This document shows, in pieces, positions 1-24,999 of a stretch of DNA of 64,000 bases (its first letter is position 1; each line of letters starts with the position of its first letter). The notes under the pieces are model-generated. The model searched no databases and was not told where the DNA came from. It was given only the letters and a program-made list of their open reading frames with translations. The translations under genes were made by a program, and so were the position numbers. This stretch comes from an uncultured Gammaproteobacteria bacterium (lineage in GTDB: Bacteria > Patescibacteriota > Patescibacteriia > Magasanikbacterales > JBBTQS01). The stretch spans positions 1,565-65,564 of the forward strand of contig CAZVIA010000004.1 in the NCBI GenBank assembly GCA_964627525.1. The letters run 5' to 3'.

Positions 1-170
1 TTGTTTTTGGCCTTCATAATATATGACGTAATGCTAACCAATTTCTTACATTTTGTCTACTTTGTCCAAACCACCCATATATAATAAAAATTAAATAAAC
101 AAACCACGCATACTGTTACATATACGTAGTTTTGTTTTAGTTCAACCCCTAAAACCCCAAACTCCCACAA

Positions 171-1580
171 CTAGTTCACACACAAAACACCATATCGATT
201 CAATCGATACACACCTCCTTGACCAGCAATTGCCATACCACCATCTTCCAAAGACAACACAGCATTTGCTGTATCAAAACCCGCCCCACCAAATGACCGC
301 TCAAACAAAATCCTGCCTTGAGCATCTATTTGACTCAACCACATTTGAGCACTGGTGTTTCCATATGATCTAGTTATGCCAGCTGTAAGCAAATCATTGC
401 CCACACGCCAATCCATTGCATTCACTGAATCATACATCAGACCGCCAAAGGTTTTTTGCCAAACAAAATATCCATCAGAATTAAGCTTGAGCATAAAACC
501 ATCATACTCATACCCATCACCGATTTTGATTTTGCCAGTAACAAAAAAATCCTTGTAAGCATCTTGTGCAACAGCACTTGCCATCTGGTAATCAACAGCA
601 GAATGAAATCTCTCCCACATAATTCCGCCGTTTGTGACAAATTTTGCAACAATAACCCGAGTCTTCAAACCAGGTTGCAGAATTGTGTTACCAACTGCAA
701 CATACTCTCCCTGACCCAAATGCGCGACATCAGAAAGCTGACCACCAGTTTCAACACCTAGCAATTTAGACCACTGCTGAATACCCATGGAATCAATTCT
801 ATAAATCCACGGCGAAGTAGTAACATTTTCCAACACTCCACTTCTGTTTCCAACAATAATAAAACCACCTTCATCATCTGCAACCACTGCGCGAGCTATG
901 TCATCCTTAGTACCACCGTAATCCTCTTCCCAATGCATTTCACCACTTACATCCATGAGCATAACCCAAGCATCTGCTTCACCAAGCCCTGATGAACGAG
1001 TGTAACCCACAACCATAAACTGATCTGCACCACCTTCTGTGTTTTGCACTTTAGAAACTGACCACAGCTTATCTATTTGAGTCCACCCAAACTCTTTTTC
1101 CCAAACCACATTCCCACTTGAATCCAATTTGGTTACACAAGAATTTTGATCATAATCAAATCCAGAAATCAGCTCATGACAAGAACTAATCACAATCAAG
1201 TTACCTTGATCATCTTCAGTCATTGTCAAAACTTCATCCAAGAATTGCTCGCTCAAATCCTTATGCCAGCACTGATAACTATTTTGCACCTCTTCAGATC
1301 CAAACACATCTTCCTTATCCAAAATAGATCTGGGAAAGCCCTCTTGCTCACCTTGCACACCAGTTCCACACTCACAAGGCTCAGCATTTTCACACGGCTC
1401 ACACCCAGCTCTAGAATTTTGCACACTTGCAACACCAAAAGAATAGTACACAACATCATCCATAACACTGTCATGCATTTGAGTTGCATATTCCGCAGTT
1501 TGCTGACAACCTGAAAATTGCCAACCCAACAAACCAAACACAAACCCCAACCACACCAAACTCAAAAAAGACTTTCGCAC
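171..1580 (-). CDS. Secreted lipoprotein with repeated beta-propeller-like (SBBP-type) units
   Basis: The N-terminus MRKSFLSLVWLGFVFGLLGWQFSGC is a lipoprotein-type signal with a lipobox Cys. About 40-aa units of the form D..G...W...FGG...D.A.AV..DGG.I.AG.T.S recur at least five times. Confidence 0.5.
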   Translation of the reverse strand: MRKSFLSLVWLGFVFGLLGWQFSGCQQTAEYATQMHDSVMDDVVYYSFGVASVQNSRAGCEPCENAEPCECGTGVQGEQEGFPRSILDKEDVFGSEEVQNSYQCWHKDLSEQFLDEVLTMTEDDQGNLIVISSCHELISGFDYDQNSCVTKLDSSGNVVWEKEFGWTQIDKLWSVSKVQNTEGGADQFMVVGYTRSSGLGEADAWVMLMDVSGEMHWEEDYGGTKDDIARAVVADDEGGFIIVGNRSGVLENVTTSPWIYRIDSMGIQQWSKLLGVETGGQLSDVAHLGQGEYVAVGNTILQPGLKTRVIVAKFVTNGGIMWERFHSAVDYQMASAVAQDAYKDFFVTGKIKIGDGYEYDGFMLKLNSDGYFVWQKTFGGLMYDSVNAMDWRVGNDLLTAGITRSYGNTSAQMWLSQIDAQGRILFERSFGGAGFDTANAVLSLEDGGMAIAGQGGVYRLNRYGVLCVN

Positions 1581-1708
1581 TTTTCGCTCCTATTCATATT
1601 TAATTCAATTAAGGGATTAAAATATCCTATCAACCAATTTGCGCACAGTCAATAGGATAAACTATGGATAAAGTGTGGTTAAAATTTTGTTGAACCTTAG
1701 CTCAAAAT

Positions 1709-2215
1709 TTACCCCCTCAACAAAACCTTTTGCAACTCGCCCAATCTTTTATAAAAACCAGCACTATGAATTGAGTTTAAACCTAAAGCACAAAAATCAT
1801 AATGATGCATCCACTCATGCAACAAAGTATTTAAAAAAGTTTTTGAAGCTAACATTTGCCCACGCACAGCAGTGCGATTTGTAATATAAATATATTTTGA
1901 CTTTGGGCGATAATAACCATATTGCTTCATCACAGTTCGCCCACCTCTTTTTTTGTGATATTGATTTGTATCACTAATTTTAACATTACAAATATCTATT
2001 TGTGCGAGATCGCAAAGTTCATCTAGCAAAGAAGTGCTGAATTTTTGGCGGGCGCGAGCGGAGCGAGCGCCCAAAATTTCTTCGCACAAAGCACAAACAC
2101 AATCATTCACTTCAAAAGCAACCGCTGTAATACGATTGCTTTTATTATAATTTCTTTTATTACTATTTAAGAAAAACATATCATAGGTCCAACTACCCCT
2201 TCCCACCACTTCCAT
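1709..2215 (-). CDS. SprT-like / DUF45-type zinc metallopeptidase-fold protein
   Basis: It has an HEWMHH (HExxH) motif followed by a conserved His/Ser region, as in the YgjP/SprT families. The N-terminal part contains Cys clusters. Confidence 0.4.
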   Translation of the reverse strand: MEVVGRGSWTYDMFFLNSNKRNYNKSNRITAVAFEVNDCVCALCEEILGARSARARQKFSTSLLDELCDLAQIDICNVKISDTNQYHKKRGGRTVMKQYGYYRPKSKYIYITNRTAVRGQMLASKTFLNTLLHEWMHHYDFCALGLNSIHSAGFYKRLGELQKVLLRG

Positions 2216-4132: not shown

Positions 4133-5131
4133 TTATTTTTTCTTTAAAACTTTTTTCACAGCACTAATAATATTTTTTGATTTCATTCCATACTTTTCCA
4201 ACAACTCTTCTGGAGTACCTGACTCACCAAAACTATCATTAACACCAACTGGTACAATTGGAACTGGTCGTACTTGTGCCAACTCTTCACAAACCACACC
4301 AAACAAACCTCCAGCCATTTGATGTTCCTCAACAGTGACCACACAACCAGTTTTTCGCACAGAAGCTAATAAAGTTTTACGATCAAAAGGTTTGATTGAA
4401 GAACAATTAATTACTTCAGCACTAATTTTATTTTTTGCCAAAACATTAGCTGCAACTAATGCTTCATAAACCAATGGACCGCTCGCAATAATTGTTACAT
4501 CTTTTCCTTTTGCAAAAACTTGTGACTTACCAATTGCAAAACTAGTTTTCTTAGTAGTCATACAAGGGGTTTTTTCACGAGCAAAACGAATGTAAACAGG
4601 ACCATCTAATTTTACAGAAGCATGAATTGCTTTGCGAGTTTCTTCTTCATCACAAGGAACCAAAACTGTCATGTTTGGCAAAACTCGTGTAATAGCTACG
4701 TCTTCCAAAGCTTGATGAGTTGCTCCATCAGGTCCAACAGAAATTCCAGCATGAGCTCCAATAATTTTTACATTATTTTTTGCATAACAAATAGAAACAC
4801 GAATCTGATCCCAATTTCTTCCAGGAGAAAAAACAGCATAACTAGAAATAAACGGAATCATTCCTTCTTGTGCCATACCAGCAGCAACACCTGCCATGTT
4901 TTGTTCCGCAATTCCCATTTGAATAAATCTATTTGGAAATTTTTCCTTAAACCAATGTGAACGAGTGGATACAGTTAAGTCACAACACAACACCACTACG
5001 TTTTCATTTTTTTCTCCAGCTTCAACAACACCCTTTCCATAACCGTCGCGAGTCAAAACCATATCTGGTTCTGTAAAAATATTTTTTTTCAAATTTAATG
5101 ATGGATTTAATTTCATATTATTCGTGTTCAC
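4133..5131 (-). CDS. Transketolase, C-terminal (pyrimidine-binding plus C-terminal domain) subunit
   Basis: It shows the transketolase Pyr and C-terminal domains. The transketolase is split into two genes, as in archaea. Confidence 0.85.
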   Translation of the reverse strand: MNTNNMKLNPSLNLKKNIFTEPDMVLTRDGYGKGVVEAGEKNENVVVLCCDLTVSTRSHWFKEKFPNRFIQMGIAEQNMAGVAAGMAQEGMIPFISSYAVFSPGRNWDQIRVSICYAKNNVKIIGAHAGISVGPDGATHQALEDVAITRVLPNMTVLVPCDEEETRKAIHASVKLDGPVYIRFAREKTPCMTTKKTSFAIGKSQVFAKGKDVTIIASGPLVYEALVAANVLAKNKISAEVINCSSIKPFDRKTLLASVRKTGCVVTVEEHQMAGGLFGVVCEELAQVRPVPIVPVGVNDSFGESGTPEELLEKYGMKSKNIISAVKKVLKKK

Positions 5132-5978
5132 TTCTAATCTTACCTCCTAATGTGCGCAAATCATGCAAAGCCTGGCGAGTCTCTTCACCTGGTTTTGGTG
5201 GCTTGCCATGCCAATTAAAATCCCATTCCATATATTCAACACCTTTACCTGGAATTGTATGTGCAATTATTGCAACAGGTTTTTCATAAATAGCTTTTGC
5301 TTGGTCACATGCATCAACAATCGCACGAATGTTATGACCATCAACATCAATTACATGAAAACCAAATGCTTCAAATTTTTCTCGCAAAGGCTCAATTGCT
5401 TGTACCTCTTCAGTCATTCCATCAATTTGAATATTGTTACGATCTACTATTACAGTCAAATTATGCAAAGGTAAATTTCCAGCCATCATGAATGCTTCCC
5501 AAACCTGACCTTCTTCTAATTCACCATCTCCTGTTAAAACAAAAGTTTCCCATCTTGCATTTTGCATTTGAGCAGCCAAGGCGACACCAACTCCAACTGA
5601 AGTTCCTTGCCCTAAAGGCCCAGCTGCATTTTCAATACCTGGCAAAGAACGACGGTGAGGATGTCCTTGCAAACGAGTTCCTAATTTACGCAAAGTGTTT
5701 AATTCTTTTTTTGGAAAATACCCTGAATGTGCCAAAGCTGCATAATGTACTGGACAAACATGCCCATTACTTACTATCACACGATCACGTTTTTCCCACC
5801 AAGGATTTTTTGGACGATGATTTATAATATGAAAATATAATGCTGTAAAAACATCTGCCATTCCAAGTGGTCCAGCACTATGACCAGATCCTGCACTTAC
5901 TAACATTTTTATTAAATCCTGACGAATTGCATTTGCTGTTTCCTCAAGTTTTTTTACTTTACGATCATGTATGGGCAT
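5118..5978 (-). CDS. Transketolase, N-terminal (TPP-binding) subunit
   Basis: It has the GHSAGPLGMADV and GDGELEEG thiamine-diphosphate motifs. It overlaps the C-terminal subunit gene by 14 nt. Confidence 0.85.
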   Translation of the reverse strand: MPIHDRKVKKLEETANAIRQDLIKMLVSAGSGHSAGPLGMADVFTALYFHIINHRPKNPWWEKRDRVIVSNGHVCPVHYAALAHSGYFPKKELNTLRKLGTRLQGHPHRRSLPGIENAAGPLGQGTSVGVGVALAAQMQNARWETFVLTGDGELEEGQVWEAFMMAGNLPLHNLTVIVDRNNIQIDGMTEEVQAIEPLREKFEAFGFHVIDVDGHNIRAIVDACDQAKAIYEKPVAIIAHTIPGKGVEYMEWDFNWHGKPPKPGEETRQALHDLRTLGGKIRSEHE

Positions 5979-5981
5979 AAA

Positions 5982-6287
5982 TTATTTTTTACTTTTTACA
6001 CACGGATAACAAACATGCTTGTGTTTGCCAGTTACAATCATGATGTATTCCCAAGTACTTCCCAAAAAGAAAACACCAAATGCAATTATAAAAATCCAAT
6101 TTTGGATATACACTGAATAAGCTCCTAAAAACAAAGACCCAAAAGCAAAAACAGCATCTTGCTGTCGCTCTTTTTCCAAAAAAATTCCATATGCCATTAA
6201 GACCACACCCAACGCACCAAGCACCACTAAAACAATCTGCAAAACTGTTGGATCTGTTGTTTGAAATAATAATTGTTTTATTGTCAT
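5982..6287 (-). CDS. Small membrane protein (2-3 predicted transmembrane helices), unknown function
   Basis: The ORF is hydrophobic and sits 3 nt downstream of the transketolase genes. Confidence 0.4.
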   Translation of the reverse strand: MTIKQLLFQTTDPTVLQIVLVVLGALGVVLMAYGIFLEKERQQDAVFAFGSLFLGAYSVYIQNWIFIIAFGVFFLGSTWEYIMIVTGKHKHVCYPCVKSKK

Positions 6288-6365
6288 ATGGGACTATTAT
6301 AACACAAAACTAAAACACACTGGTTTGTTAAAACCAGCGTGTCTTTGTTTGCATAAATACACGCA

Positions 6366-7169
6366 CTAACCTGCAAAACTCAAACGATCCAATAGTGAAA
6401 TTACCTCACTTATTGACTGAACATAAACCCGCACATTTCGCCCTGCTCTAAGCACATCAGTTACATCCAAGTGCTCATAACAAATGCGCGTTTCCCATTT
6501 ATCCCACTTAGAACTACGATCTTCAACAGTTTGAAACACCAACTTTACATCTGCTGGCAAGCTGGACAAATCAAATCCGCAATCACTACAAATACACGCA
6601 AACCTTACTTTTCTATTGTAAGCATTTCTCTGTGTACTTGCATAAAGCACGCAATTCAGACCAAAACGCCAGTTTGTTGTATTGTGAAGCTTAAGCTCAG
6701 ATAGAGGACTAAGAGCATCACGCGTCACAACATAAAACAAATTCTGATGCATTTTCCCAAAAATTGCTGACACAATCTTTTGAACCTGCTTTCCAACCTC
6801 TTTTGTATCATGCCTACCATTGTGTTCACAAGCCAACAAACCACTACAACCACCTAGTAGATCATTAGTAAGTCCTCGAAAAACCGTAATTGGAACCCAC
6901 TGGTCTCCAAACGGAACAACACATGCGGCACGACAACAACCCAATTGTATATGAGTAGCAAGTCTGCGACGCAAAGCACGCAGTTCTTTAAACGTTCTTC
7001 CGTTCAACAAGCTTTCGGATTCAAGATGACCAAACCGACCAACAGTCAAAAGTGCTTTTGCAACAGCATGATCAACAGCTGTAAAATCTGTTTCAGTCAT
7101 ATCAAGCAAACCCTGTCTCACCACCTCTTCGACCAAAGGCAATTCAAACCTCTGTATTATTGATCCCAC
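6366..7169 (-). CDS. Hypothetical protein, Cys-rich, compositionally atypical
   Basis: A long ORF with no family I can recognise. Its G+C looks higher (around 43% by eye) than the flanking genes. Confidence 0.5.
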   Translation of the reverse strand: MGSIIQRFELPLVEEVVRQGLLDMTETDFTAVDHAVAKALLTVGRFGHLESESLLNGRTFKELRALRRRLATHIQLGCCRAACVVPFGDQWVPITVFRGLTNDLLGGCSGLLACEHNGRHDTKEVGKQVQKIVSAIFGKMHQNLFYVVTRDALSPLSELKLHNTTNWRFGLNCVLYASTQRNAYNRKVRFACICSDCGFDLSSLPADVKLVFQTVEDRSSKWDKWETRICYEHLDVTDVLRAGRNVRVYVQSISEVISLLDRLSFAG

Positions 7170-7483
7170 AGCTCCTCCCTTTCTTGGTCTGGGTGTTTTG
7201 GTAGATTTTTGATGGACACATTCCCAACCTCTTGAACCATTTGATTAGGCCAGTCCACCCGAATTAGCAATGCCGCACCTTCTTGATACTCATCACTCTC
7301 ACGATTTACACAAAGATACAGATTTGACCAAAGCCGAGACTTCCAAAGAAATTCCACTTTTGGGAAAAAACCATATGGCACATACATGCCATTTACATTT
7401 ATGGGAATTGGATCCCATAATATTTTTTTTACAAGATTGTTAAGGTACCCAAGAACTTGAGTAAGATTTATTTTCAAGCCCAC
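7157..7483 (-). CDS. Hypothetical protein (upstream partner of 6366..7169)
   Basis: The ORF overlaps the downstream gene by 13 nt, suggesting an operon, and has the same atypical composition. Confidence 0.4.
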   Translation of the reverse strand: MGLKINLTQVLGYLNNLVKKILWDPIPINVNGMYVPYGFFPKVEFLWKSRLWSNLYLCVNRESDEYQEGAALLIRVDWPNQMVQEVGNVSIKNLPKHPDQEREELWDQ

Positions 7484-22220: not shown

Positions 22221-22258
22221 ACAAATCATTGCCAAATTTTGGCAATGATTTGTTTTTG
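22221..22258. terminator. Bidirectional Rho-independent terminator (13-bp perfect stem)
   Basis: The hairpin is acaaatcattgcc-aaatttt-ggcaatgatttgt, followed by a T-run. It lies between the recA 3' end and the reverse-transcriptase fragment 3' end. Confidence 0.6.
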
Positions 22259-22280
22259 AATTTCATAAGCATCTGCATAC

Positions 22281-22793
22281 TTACACAAACCCAAATATTG
22301 TTTTTTGCGAAGTTATTTTTTGCTTAAGAATTTGAAGTAAAATTTCATGATCAATAGAATCAAAAAACTTTTTAATATCTATTTTTAAAGACCAGCAGAT
22401 ACGCGAATAATTTTTACTTGATTTACGAGCAAATTTATTTAATCTATTCACTGCAGCATGAGTACCTTTTCCAATTCTACAAGAGTAAGAATCATAAACA
22501 AAACCGGAATCAAACATTGGATACAAAATCCTGTGAATAGCATGATGAACTAATCTATCTCGCACACTGGCTTTATGAATTATCCTGTGTTTTGGATCGT
22601 GGATATGAAATTTGTAATAACCTCCATGTTGATATACTCCTGAAACCAATTCATCTCTCAAACAAAAAATATTATCTTCCAAATATCGTTCAAATAATTC
22701 AACACCTGGCTTGGTTCTCTTTCCCTTAGAAAAATCTTTCCAAGCTAAAAATAAATTATTTAAATTTGTAATCTTATTATATATGTCATCCAT
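22281..22793 (-). CDS. DGR/retron-type reverse transcriptase, N-terminal fragment (motifs 0-2 only, probably truncated)
   Basis: It has LFLAWKDFSKGKRTKPGV (RT motif 0), IHKASVRDRLVHHAI (motif 1), SYSCRIGKGTHAAV (motif 2a) and IDIKKFFDSIDHEILL (motif 2). The ORF then stops, with no YxDD motif or thumb, and only about 30 nt remain before the recA terminator. Confidence 0.6.
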   Translation of the reverse strand: MDDIYNKITNLNNLFLAWKDFSKGKRTKPGVELFERYLEDNIFCLRDELVSGVYQHGGYYKFHIHDPKHRIIHKASVRDRLVHHAIHRILYPMFDSGFVYDSYSCRIGKGTHAAVNRLNKFARKSSKNYSRICWSLKIDIKKFFDSIDHEILLQILKQKITSQKTIFGFV

Positions 22794-23127
22794 ATACGAA
22801 ACTTCTATATTTAAACTTACTTATGATGTGCTTAAAGAAATACATATTGCCAAAAGGTCATTTCTAAAATCAGAAAAATACACGCTTGGTGAAGTGCTTG
22901 AAAATTCCCTACTAAAAACACTTCTTGCAATTGTAAAGACAGGAAAAACAAAGCCCAAGTGGAAACTCCCAGTAATAGAAGAGGCACAGATTCATCTTGA
23001 AAAAACAAAAATACTTATGCGTCTAGCGATTGACCTAGATCAAATTAAAGGCAAACGAATAAATTATCTACGAGAACACACACAAAGAATAGGTCAGGAA
23101 TTGGGTGGGTGGAAACGGTCTTTATAA
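22783..23127 (+). CDS. avd: Avd-like four-helix-bundle protein (DGR accessory variability determinant / 23S-IVS protein family)
   Basis: It is about 114 aa. Its C-terminal IGQELGGWKRSL resembles the conserved ...LGG.I..L end of Avd/IVS four-helix-bundle proteins, and the helical heptad pattern fits. Its start codon overlaps the reverse-transcriptase start on the opposite strand. Confidence 0.6.
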   Translation: MSSIYETSIFKLTYDVLKEIHIAKRSFLKSEKYTLGEVLENSLLKTLLAIVKTGKTKPKWKLPVIEEAQIHLEKTKILMRLAIDLDQIKGKRINYLREHTQRIGQELGGWKRSL

Positions 23128-23131
23128 AAAT

Positions 23132-23158
23132 TTGCAACGCTGATTTGAGGCGTTGCAA
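23132..23158. terminator. Hairpin terminator (9-bp stem ttgcaacgc/gcgttgcaa) between avd and the template repeat
   Basis: The perfect inverted repeat is followed by a TCTCTTTT run on the + strand and an A/T run on the - strand, so it may act as a bidirectional terminator. Confidence 0.5.
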
Positions 23159-23167
23159 ATTCTCTTT

Positions 23168-23297
23168 TACACTCCCGACACGAAGCCGAACCATAACGCG
23201 AGTTCGTATTGTCATCCCAGTTCCAGCTCAACTTCGGTCCGTCGAGCCACAAGTTGAGGTACGCAAAGTTCTCGCGATTGTCACAATGGACAGAACT
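23168..23297 (-). repeat. DGR template repeat (TR)
   Basis: It is 130 bp and 90% identical to 23637..23766. At 11 of the 13 mismatches this copy has A on the minus strand where the other copy has G, T or C. Three AAC codons in the matched frame are among the varied sites. The copy is non-coding, and the overlapping ORF 23109..23300 is spurious. Confidence 0.75.
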
Positions 23298-23545
23298 TAA
23301 TTAGCCAAATTCCTCCCTTTTTCACCACAACTTCCACTTTTCATGGTTATTGTTGTATTTCATTCTGAATCTAAAATTCAATAGAATCTAACCGAAGTGT
23401 ATTTAAAACAAGCTCATCTAAGTACACTGCACAGTATGCTTAATAACTGCACATCTTTGTCATTTTGAGCAATTTCGGGGACAAAAATAAACAATTTATT
23501 ATTGTGCACTACCCTAATCTCAAACAAAGTATATCAAAAAAAGAA

Positions 23546-23573
23546 GACTCTGGCTTTGTTACAAGTCAGAGTC
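23546..23573 (-). terminator. Rho-independent terminator of the DGR target gene
   Basis: The inverted repeat gactctg...cagagtc is followed on the minus strand by a UUCUUUUUUU run. It lies about 60 nt past the target-gene stop codon. Confidence 0.45.
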
Positions 23574-23628
23574 AAAAAAAGGGAAAAGGGATAAGTATTA
23601 AAGAGTGAAGAGGGTCAAAGGGGTAATG

Positions 23629-24369
23629 TTACTTAATACACTTCCGACACGAAGCCGAACCATCACGCGAGTACGCATTGACATCCCAGTCCCAGCCCAA
23701 CTCCGGCCCGTCGAGCCACAAGCCGAGGCACGCAAAGTTCTCGCGATTGCCACAATGGACAGAACTGGGTAGATCCACGTAGTGATCTTGCAGAACCTTT
23801 CTATTCTGGGCAAACAATGCAAGACCCTCCATTGCATCAAGTCCGATTTCATTTTTTTCAAACTCTTTACGACAAGTTTGGACATTCTTTCCTAGATTGC
23901 GCTTACCATCTTGGCACCAAATCCAGTATACATCTTGTTTTTTGACTTGTTCTGGATTGAATGGTTCAAATGTAGAATTGTTTCCAGTGAACTTTACTCC
24001 TAGAAGTTCGCAGACTTTGACAAGTCCGCCGAATTTGAAGCTCTTTCCATCCTCACCTTTAGTACACGCGATGCGTGCATCTACTAGAACAAGTTTGTCC
24101 AAGTAGTCTGGGAGATCTTCAGAACGCTCTGGCTCTGGAGGAATGAACTCAAGGTACTCAGCAAATGTGCTATAACCAAGCACTTCTCCAAAACCACAAT
24201 CCCAGAGGAGTTTGGCTTGGTGTTCGCGGATGTTGCTTTGTTCTTCTGCAACAGTCTCTCCACGCAAAATGCGGATCACAGCTTCCAAGCCACCGAGTTT
24301 GGTGACCAAAGCTTTGACATGCCCAATGCGAAAATCATCGACCTTTTTCACAGAGTCTAGGTCGTGCAT
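23629..24369 (-). CDS. DGR target (variable) protein, 246 aa, with the variable repeat at its C-terminus; no signal peptide seen
   Basis: The ORF has a visibly higher G+C (around 45%) than its neighbours. The C-terminal variable repeat is Trp/Gly/Asp-rich, as in the C-type-lectin-fold variable regions of DGR targets, although the fold is not verified. Confidence 0.65.
   Translation of the reverse strand: MHDLDSVKKVDDFRIGHVKALVTKLGGLEAVIRILRGETVAEEQSNIREHQAKLLWDCGFGEVLGYSTFAEYLEFIPPEPERSEDLPDYLDKLVLVDARIACTKGEDGKSFKFGGLVKVCELLGVKFTGNNSTFEPFNPEQVKKQDVYWIWCQDGKRNLGKNVQTCRKEFEKNEIGLDAMEGLALFAQNRKVLQDHYVDLPSSVHCGNRENFACLGLWLDGPELGWDWDVNAYSRDGSASCRKCIK
23637..23766 (-). repeat. DGR variable repeat (VR), 3' end of the target gene
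   Basis: This copy is the partner of the template repeat. It encodes the C-terminal 43 aa (SSVHCGNRENFACLGLWLDGPELGWDWDVNAYSRDGSASCRKC) of the target protein and ends 5 nt before the stop codon. Confidence 0.75.
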
Positions 24370-24505: not shown

Positions 24506-24787
24506 CTAAAACCGATTCCAAAATCCCTTATAAGCAATTGACCTGTGTCCAATTTTAAAAATTTTAACTTTTTTCTTTTCAATACGAAAAATTACCCTAT
24601 AGTCGCCCACACGTAATTTTCTATTATTTTTCAAAGATTTCCTCAATGGTTTGCCAAACTTTTCCGGTGCTACTAATAATTTTTCCTCAATTGATTTTTT
24701 AATTCTATCCTTAATTGATACACCTAATTTAGGTATATCTTTTTTAACAACTGACTCATGATACTCTATTTCATAACTCATACCCAT
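24506..24787 (-). CDS. relE: Type II toxin, RelE/ParE family
   Basis: It has a C-terminal VGDYRVIFRIE...KIGHR motif. It overlaps the upstream antitoxin gene by 10 nt. Confidence 0.75.
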   Translation of the reverse strand: MGMSYEIEYHESVVKKDIPKLGVSIKDRIKKSIEEKLLVAPEKFGKPLRKSLKNNRKLRVGDYRVIFRIEKKKVKIFKIGHRSIAYKGFWNRF

Positions 24788-24999
24788 ACACTATCATGAG
24801 GAATAAATTCTGCATTATTAGTATCACGTTTTTTAACAATAGTATCCCAAACTTCGTCTTCTTCAATTTCTACTGCTTTACAGATTAATTCCAAAGCTTT
24901 TGTAGCCAAAGGAACACCATCTCTTTCAGCAAGACGACCAAGAATTTTTTCCATTTCTTTGGGTAATGCAAGATTAATACGTTTTTTTAATGTAGGCAT
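24778..24999 (-). CDS. Ribbon-helix-helix (CopG/RelB-type) antitoxin
   Basis: The N-terminal KRINLALPKEMEKILGRLAERDG is an RHH signature, and it sits directly upstream of relE. Confidence 0.6.
   Translation of the reverse strand: MPTLKKRINLALPKEMEKILGRLAERDGVPLATKALELICKAVEIEEDEVWDTIVKKRDTNNAEFIPHDSVWV

Follow-up and report, generated by a model that had tools for sequence, protein, structure and literature searches.

Does the repeat-bearing locus in a 64,000-nucleotide stretch of a Magasanikbacterales genome (positions 1,565 to 65,564 of contig CAZVIA010000004.1, hereafter the window) constitute a working diversity-generating retroelement (DGR), as an earlier note on this DNA had proposed from an adenine-specific repeat pair lying beside a reverse transcriptase (RT)-motif open reading frame (ORF) and an Avd-like ORF? 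The locus is a genuine chromosomal DGR cassette of the type found in the candidate phyla radiation (CPR)/Patescibacteria, and its RT is dead. It was probably disabled recently and is now non-autonomous, with its variable repeats standing as records of past activity.

The repeat pair was recovered with exactly the limits first noticed, by both a repeat search and our own alignment: the template repeat (TR) and the copy in the adjacent gene, the first variable repeat (VR1), are 130 nt each, 90% identical, and differ at 13 positions (Table 1). No homology was found past either end of the pair, and no third copy was found within the window. Read on the minus strand, the TR has A at 11 of the 13 mismatches (binomial P = 2.3 × 10−6, given 28 A among the 130 TR positions), which upholds the description of the pair as adenine-specific. 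The VR1 base at these template adenines is G nine times and T twice; the earlier note had listed G, T or C, and C never occurs. The placement of VR1 at the 3′ end of the 246-aa ORF is also borne out, as the repeat ends 5 nt before the TAA stop. A codon table returns the three varied AAC codons as 216 (to GGC), 227 (to GAC) and 233 (to TAC), and the template codons AAC 211, AAT 208 and AAT 231 are the same in VR1; all but one of the 11 A changes are non-synonymous. An ordinary tandem-like duplication that had diverged by point mutation, with no retro-homing, would account for the existence of the repeat and for nothing more. That explanation is effectively refuted by the adenine bias on one strand and in one direction (P = 2 × 10−6 for VR1 and 7 × 10−11 for a second variable repeat, VR2, described below), by the non-coding nature of one copy and the in-frame position of the other at a gene 3′ end, by the Avd ORF and RT remnant that adjoin the repeats, and by the recurrence of the same architecture in 65 relatives.

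The variable part of VR1 spans 23664–23750, and its invariant 3′ end spans 23637–23663. The two mismatches (TR>VR1) at non-adenine positions are T>G at repeat position 103 (window 23664) and G>A at position 124 (window 23643). Both had been put forward as initiation of mutagenic homing (IMH/IMH*) determinants; position 124 retains this interpretation, its G>A change being common to VR1 and VR2, whereas position 103 does not, its T>G change being private to VR1. The fixed G/A difference at 23643 thus behaves like a candidate IMH/IMH*-like feature of the VR 3′ end. The TR sequence shows no differences among the assemblies that cover it.

The RT gene, by contrast with the intact enzyme expected of a DGR, is broken. 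Its 170-aa ORF retains the fingers and motifs 1–2 through FFDSIDH and passes the RVT_1 profile threshold (41.6 bits), matching only positions 8–97 of 205. A tblastn search of the window with the frameshift-corrected RT of the closest relative (locus L003) placed residues 1–154 at 22820..22359 and residues 312–333 at 22300..22235 in another frame (E = 7 × 10−4), and alignment with four full-length relative RTs defined an internal, out-of-frame deletion of ~410 nt. The deletion took out motifs 3–7, including GLPIGNLTSQ, Y[IL]RY[AT]DD, LHPxK and GxDFLGY, together with the thumb, so that neither the catalytic YxDD nor the [IVL]GxxxSQ motif of an intact DGR RT is present. The remnant beyond the deletion ends in the recA terminator hairpin, and tblastn found no other RT in the 64-kb window. 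The RT-motif ORF that the earlier note placed near the repeats therefore exists, but as a pseudogene without a catalytic core, and the claim of a complete working DGR falls with it. Were the cassette nonetheless complete and autonomous, the 170-aa ORF would itself have to be the working RT; the presence of motifs 1–2 and the RVT_1 score favor this, but less than half of the RT domain remains, the missing part (YxDD, motifs 3–7 and thumb) is nowhere in the window, and the stub is immediately followed by the C-terminal remnant in another frame. Activity from such a product is not expected from established polymerase biochemistry, and the idea, refuted by the sequence, is hardly credible.

The deletion is also a consistent property of the locus. 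The exact 170-aa product is encoded on nine contigs from at least seven samples (from ENA, JGI, Logan and NCBI), the junction region is 99.6–100% identical in all nine, and every available assembly of the locus has the deletion. Source samples include SCRA20-1 (SAMN11854485–93), SUTE22-1 (SAMN10231901 and SAMN10231923), SRR9166041 and JGI 3300009374, 3300009375 and 3300009405. In a 5.8-billion-cluster protein collection no ORF runs past RT residue 165, and the next relative there is at 70% identity. An assembly artefact, or a minority haplotype in a population whose RT is really intact, could be imagined because a G9–G10 run in the relatives' counterpart of the deleted segment could hamper sequencing and because contigs around the locus are fragmented. 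It is made very unlikely by the identical junction in the nine contigs across samples, assemblers and archives, by the absence of any N-terminal ORF extending beyond residue 165 among 15 billion proteins that include those of these samples, and by the one odd contig, L101, which does not run on into RT sequence. L101 (602 nt; protein P0011; ENA ERZ23499185 scaffold_201512) was otherwise set aside as uninformative: its RT-stub match (22910..22419) is followed by 110 unrelated nt, an extension found nowhere in the window, and a chimera or else an unknown rearrangement would account for it. Contigs L093 and L094 represent a third haplotype, marked by a synonymous single-nucleotide polymorphism (SNP) at window 22536 (RT-stub Ile86, ATT to ATC); the VR lies outside the coverage of these two contigs.

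Table 1. Features of the DGR locus, its paralogous targets and related loci. Coordinates are window positions unless preceded by a locus or contig handle (L numbers).
Feature	Coordinates	Strand	Remarks
Template repeat (TR)	23168..23297	−	Non-coding; repeat search and own alignment
Variable repeat (VR1)	23637..23766	−	Codons 202–244 of target gene; repeat search, alignment and codon table
Conserved structured RNA leader, four helices	23302..23393 (92 nt)	−	Immediately 5′ of TR
13-bp hairpin	23129..23161	.	Between TR 3′ end and avd stop codon
avd, 114 aa, intact	22783..23127	+	Between TR and RT, on the strand opposite to both
RT pseudogene, 5′ part, 170-aa ORF	22281..22793	−	Residues 1–165, then five out-of-frame codons and stop
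RT C-terminal remnant, 24 codons	22229..22300	−	QYLGLCKYADAYEIQKQIIAKIWQ, then stop; other frame; deletion junction ~22298
15-bp hairpin	22221..22253	.	Bidirectional terminator shared by recA (+) and RT remnant (−)
DGR target gene, 246 aa	23629..24369	−	N-terminal helical part and C-terminal C-type-lectin-like domain bearing the VR
VR 3′ flank, 99 nt	23538..23636	−	Stop codon, hairpin GACTCTG..CAGAGTC (23546–23573), T run
Remote target paralog, protein P0002	L095:8001-8777 (ENA ERZ23499079 scaffold_74)		N-terminus unlike that of the adjacent target
Third target paralog, protein P0003	L104:3496-4209		1.4–2.1 kb left of window base 1, same chromosome
Internal RT poly-G tract	L006–L050, e.g. L003 ~5020-5035; L096:3049, L097:3049, L098:1633, L099:3049, L100:3049		In RT genes of relatives
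Upstream G8–G11 runs	L053:3970, L054:3982, L058:3460, L059:3977, L062:3971 and others		Divergent avd/RT start region
Upstream G8–G11 runs, more	L063:2159, L067:823, L072:3977, L076:3978, L081:3969		Before conserved RT N-terminus

Unlike the RT, the accessory gene of the DGR is intact. The Avd ORF is full length and aligns collinearly with that of L003; at their starts, it and the RT ORF share 11 nt. Its product scores 44.1 bits against Pfam bAvd (PF22296; cut-off 40) and 52.4 bits against the DGR Avd model NF033474, below the cut-off of 80 for that model. The earlier note was right to place both an Avd-like ORF and an RT ORF within 400 nt of the TR. A survey of GTDB representative genomes yielded 80 Patescibacteria loci of the same family, in 65 of which the TR/VR pair could be located; the order in these 65 is target/VR, 400–550 nt, TR, 340–430 nt containing the reversed avd, and RT. 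A VR–TR spacing of ~440–470 nt was also noted for these loci. Gene order, spacing and divergent avd/RT starts in the window match these ~65 Patescibacteria loci and L003, whose RT is 70% identical and which has the same layout with a full RT. Both the relatives and the base composition (G+C content 35%) point to a Patescibacteria host. Since the relatives share the reversed avd, its orientation is a family trait and no anomaly. The 65 relatives have 5–28 mismatches per TR/VR pair, and 94.6% of the 1143 pooled mismatches fall at template A (A>G 58%, A>T 21%, A>C 15%), the top non-A change being T>G. The A>G excess and single T>G of the window pair match this spectrum, and the pair is thus typical of the family.

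Several further features concern the surroundings of these loci. Two DGR loci of the family occur together in several related genomes (L009/L021 on the single contig JACQSK010000005.1, L012/L047 in OZ246408.1 and L011/L044 in CAYHWG01), with the two loci ~15 kb apart in one such genome. A ParE-toxin/ribbon-helix-helix antitoxin pair is encoded directly upstream of the target gene (window 24506–24999, minus strand), and toxin–antitoxin genes (PemK, PhdYeFM) are also found near the DGR in relatives L102 and L103. In three relatives (L006:84-1999, L068:1-265 and L082:1-414) the DGR lies directly downstream of 23S–5S rRNA genes, and the 23S gene of L003/L006 contains group I introns with LAGLIDADG ORFs.

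The TR is bordered by RNA structure on both sides. In an alignment of the leader from 20 family members, with slid pairing partners as controls, 19 of its 23 pairs show compensatory changes, 95% of cells are paired (~45% in the controls), and the covariation score is 0.80 (≤0.17 in the controls). The structure occupies the same position, immediately 5′ of the TR, in relatives L006–L031. Weinberg et al. 2017 (PMC5737381) speculated that DGRs are served by RT-n motifs besides RT-10, and the leader resembles one of these, Rfam RT-16 (RF03019), in being a structured RNA that adjoins an RT gene. It matches RT-16 over its full length at 23296–23431 (38 bits, E = 3 × 10−4), short of the gathering score of 50, and searches of 24 relatives gave no RT-16. 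This identity was therefore rejected and is retained as a lead only; the consensus structure of the family itself is the better-supported description of the leader. Past the other end of the TR, the 13-bp hairpin looks like a bidirectional terminator, which would end the TR RNA, and in each of ~25 relatives a G+C-rich hairpin with a sequence of its own lies 10–25 nt past the TR end, flanked by A and T runs. With a hairpin between the TR and the avd 3′ end, co-transcription of the TR RNA with the RT appears to be precluded; with a leader at its 5′ side and a hairpin at its 3′ side, the TR RNA looks like a discrete transcript composed of leader, TR and terminator.

VR1 lies inside coding sequence, in a domain whose predicted C-type-lectin-like fold belongs with the variation-tolerant folds (C-type lectin or immunoglobulin) and resembles that of known DGR variable proteins. 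The adjacent gene is not the only target. A remote paralog lies on a 128-kb scaffold whose composition matches, with a G+C content of 36.2% and a tetranucleotide correlation of r = 0.97, from the same sample as contig L086, a 71-kb scaffold that carries the window locus; no RT, avd or TR was found within 8 kb of it. This remote paralog is 100% identical to the adjacent target of L086 over ~290 nt, comprising 60 nt before the VR, VR2 and the 99-nt terminator flank. The flank, which is the terminator of the target gene and a candidate homing determinant, is also 100% identical between the window and the remote paralog, with identity stopping at 23538. Several public contigs, L002 and L087 among them, end precisely at this limit of remote-paralog homology. 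The third paralog is reached through contig L104, of which positions 5604–7354 are 100% identical to window 1–1751; in its VR-like stretch there are 11 non-A differences, as well as indels that cause a frameshift and a premature stop. It is a decayed former target, and its decayed and frameshifted VR shows that the system as a whole is eroding. A G9 run lies ~110 nt past the stop of this third paralog (L104:4322), and no G/C run of 7 or more was found in the 64-kb window. As VR2 is also present in the remote paralog and a third, decayed paralog exists, the element was active on several targets. Multi-target DGRs are known from Treponema denticola, in which TvpA and its paralogs are diversified. 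The present case differs in that the two targets share VR2 and the ~290-nt identical stretch in the sole sample that assembles both, and the same VR with identical flanks in both targets suggests that, in place of independent homing, gene conversion or a collapsed assembly is responsible.

VR2 differs from the TR at 18 positions, 17 of them at template adenines (P = 6.6 × 10−11). Two different VRs derived from the TR by adenine mutagenesis, and at least two targets, are thus a robust conclusion. L086, which is from another sample, matches the window at all but 14 of 12,741 nt, and these 14 positions are all in the VR (23664–23747); 13 of these 14 differences between VR1 and VR2 are at template-A sites, and the two VRs may come from two paralogous loci.

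Two points weigh against a disabled element. The first is that L086 and L087, with 14 VR-only differences over 12.7 kb, have an identical RT deletion, L086 bearing the same deletion as the window. A VR that differs beside a deletion that is shared means, at face value, that the VR changed after the deletion, for which an RT from elsewhere would be needed. The second is that the available genome amounts to 64 kb only, and related genomes often hold two DGRs. The cassette could accordingly be a satellite, its TR RNA and Avd still served by an RT from elsewhere in the genome, in a second DGR of this family, or from a mobile element, with both targets still diversified at a low rate. Besides the two haplotypes, this possibility draws on the intact state of the Avd, TR, TR leader and VRs, on the frequency of two RT loci in related genomes, and on the family-wide conservation of leader structure and loop sequences, through which a paralogous RT–Avd could plausibly recognize the leader. 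It is countered by the lack of a second RT in the window, by the finding of only two VRs across the public assemblies as a whole, both of them stable from sample to sample, and by the status of VR2 as also the VR of the remote paralog, such that conversion or mis-assembly can explain the haplotypes. The L003-type DGR, the sole co-occurring candidate open to testing, does not supply the missing enzyme, as it comes from another organism (G+C content 42.7% versus 35.3%; tetranucleotide r 0.85 versus ≥0.97 for pieces of the genome itself). On balance, an RT acting in trans is rather unlikely.

Candidates for a second RT in this genome were considered and discarded. The L003/L004-type DGR, which has 70% RT identity and occurs in the same samples, is excluded by G+C content and tetranucleotide correlation, and the RTs P0115 and P0117, on long ENA contigs, belong to an unrelated dataset.

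The two haplotypes had at first appearance offered proof of post-deletion diversification, as two alleles at one locus; this was downgraded because the remote paralog has the same VR2 and flanks. Contig L091 (window 23868..22259) joins paralog-type SNPs (23827, 23829 and 23833) and VR2 to the DGR spacer, a junction that arose by conversion between the paralogous genes or else by chimeric assembly; a further paralog-specific SNP lies at 23869. Taken together, the VR2 and identical flanks in the same-sample paralog, the L091 hybrid and the contig ends at 23538 weaken the case for diversification after the deletion; VR2 at the adjacent locus may be real, may stem from gene conversion, or may reflect mis-threading by the assembler. 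A satellite DGR with its RT in trans, combined with gene-conversion shuffling of VRs between paralogous targets, would explain haplotypes that are identical over 12.7 kb, share the same dead RT and differ at 14 VR positions, and we consider this combination unlikely. Across all public assemblies only VR1 and VR2 occur, each recurrent in several samples, which fits frozen alleles better than ongoing hypermutation. Exact-pattern scans of metagenome contigs with the VR 5′ junction and the VR 3′ flank gave 0 matches each, in a collection that evidently does not contain these samples.

We therefore return to a recently disabled DGR as the probable history of the locus. While the RT was intact, RT–Avd would have copied the TR RNA into adenine-mutagenized cDNA, and this cDNA would have replaced the VR in at least two targets, the adjacent gene and the remote paralog sharing its VR flanks. 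Deletion within the RT gene would then have ended autonomous mutagenic homing, and recently so, given that no further decay is seen in the Avd ORF, in the RT stub of 165 codons, in the RT tail or in either VR. The VRs now in place most likely preserve a frozen record of that past activity.

Comparison with described systems places the locus close to the "B3" architecture of Wu et al. 2018 (PMC5758913), which is set apart by avd/TR order and orientation and, according to that paper, makes up 90% of CPR DGRs. With the B3 definition taken from the wording of the paper, the likeness extends to the order and orientation of target/VR, TR, avd and RT, the host group, an avd orientation unlike that of Bordetella, a VR of ~110–135 nt at the C-terminal end of a small protein that lacks Pfam domains, and occasional non-A substitutions. 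The difference is that the window RT is an internally deleted pseudogene. The paper reports several non-A changes as frequent in CPR DGRs, notes multiple DGR targets, and states that more than half of the candidate DGRs were discarded for premature stops or truncations; decayed copies would thus be common, though they are not individually described there. The locus also departs from the prototype, the DGR of Bordetella phage BPP-1 (mtd-avd-TR-brt): that element is phage-borne whereas the one in the window is chromosomal, and in the window avd lies on the opposite strand between TR and RT, a terminator hairpin directly follows the TR, and the RT is non-functional. The structured RNA also differs in position, lying 5′ of the TR in the window and 3′ of the TR, as a spacer/RT-10 element, in BPP-1 (PMC5737381).

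A further feature emerged in the RT genes of relatives. In the ~30 closest relatives a G7–G12 homopolymer lies within the gene, between motifs 2 and 3, a site that the deletion in the window took out. Gene callers split the RTs of these relatives into two ORFs, and the best 120 protein matches are all ≤252 aa. At the 24 loci that were scored, the RT halves on either side of the tract are in frame in six and in the other two frames in 13 and five. One locus is represented by five independent assemblies at 99.94–99.97% identity, in which the only indel is the tract itself (G10 once, G9 three times and G8 once); its G10 allele is in frame and encodes 338 aa. Clusters at 90% identity likewise mix full-length and split RTs with identical N-termini, and loci with an out-of-frame consensus RT still have adenine-specific TR/VR pairs. 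The tracts are concentrated at the RT gene: of 55 G/C runs of 7 or more in 566 kb of loci, 32 are at the internal RT site, 16 are upstream of the RT and seven are elsewhere. The 16 upstream runs belong to more distant relatives without the internal tract and lie 20–125 nt before the RT start; in the examples that were read, the run separates the RT from an ATG further upstream that is not in the RT frame. The poly-G tract has the appearance of a hypermutable on/off switch for the DGR RT, or of a slippage requirement. No description of a poly-G tract in DGR RT genes was found in the searchable literature.

For the recognition of DGRs, the locus carries a caution: one that passes the quick tests, with an adenine-specific TR/VR pair, an RT-domain ORF and Avd, can be non-autonomous, and claims of a functional DGR need a check of the RT catalytic core. 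For the biology of the group it offers a view, fixed in time, of a DGR decaying in a reduced CPR genome: loss of the RT came first, with avd, the TR and its RNA leader, and two clean VRs still in place, beside an older paralog with an eroded VR. If the RT were instead supplied in trans, TR/Avd modules would be able to persist as clients of the RT of another element. The poly-G tracts in or just before many CPR DGR RT genes may matter more than the locus itself. They suggest that targeted hypermutation is itself stochastically switched on and off, and this is directly testable.

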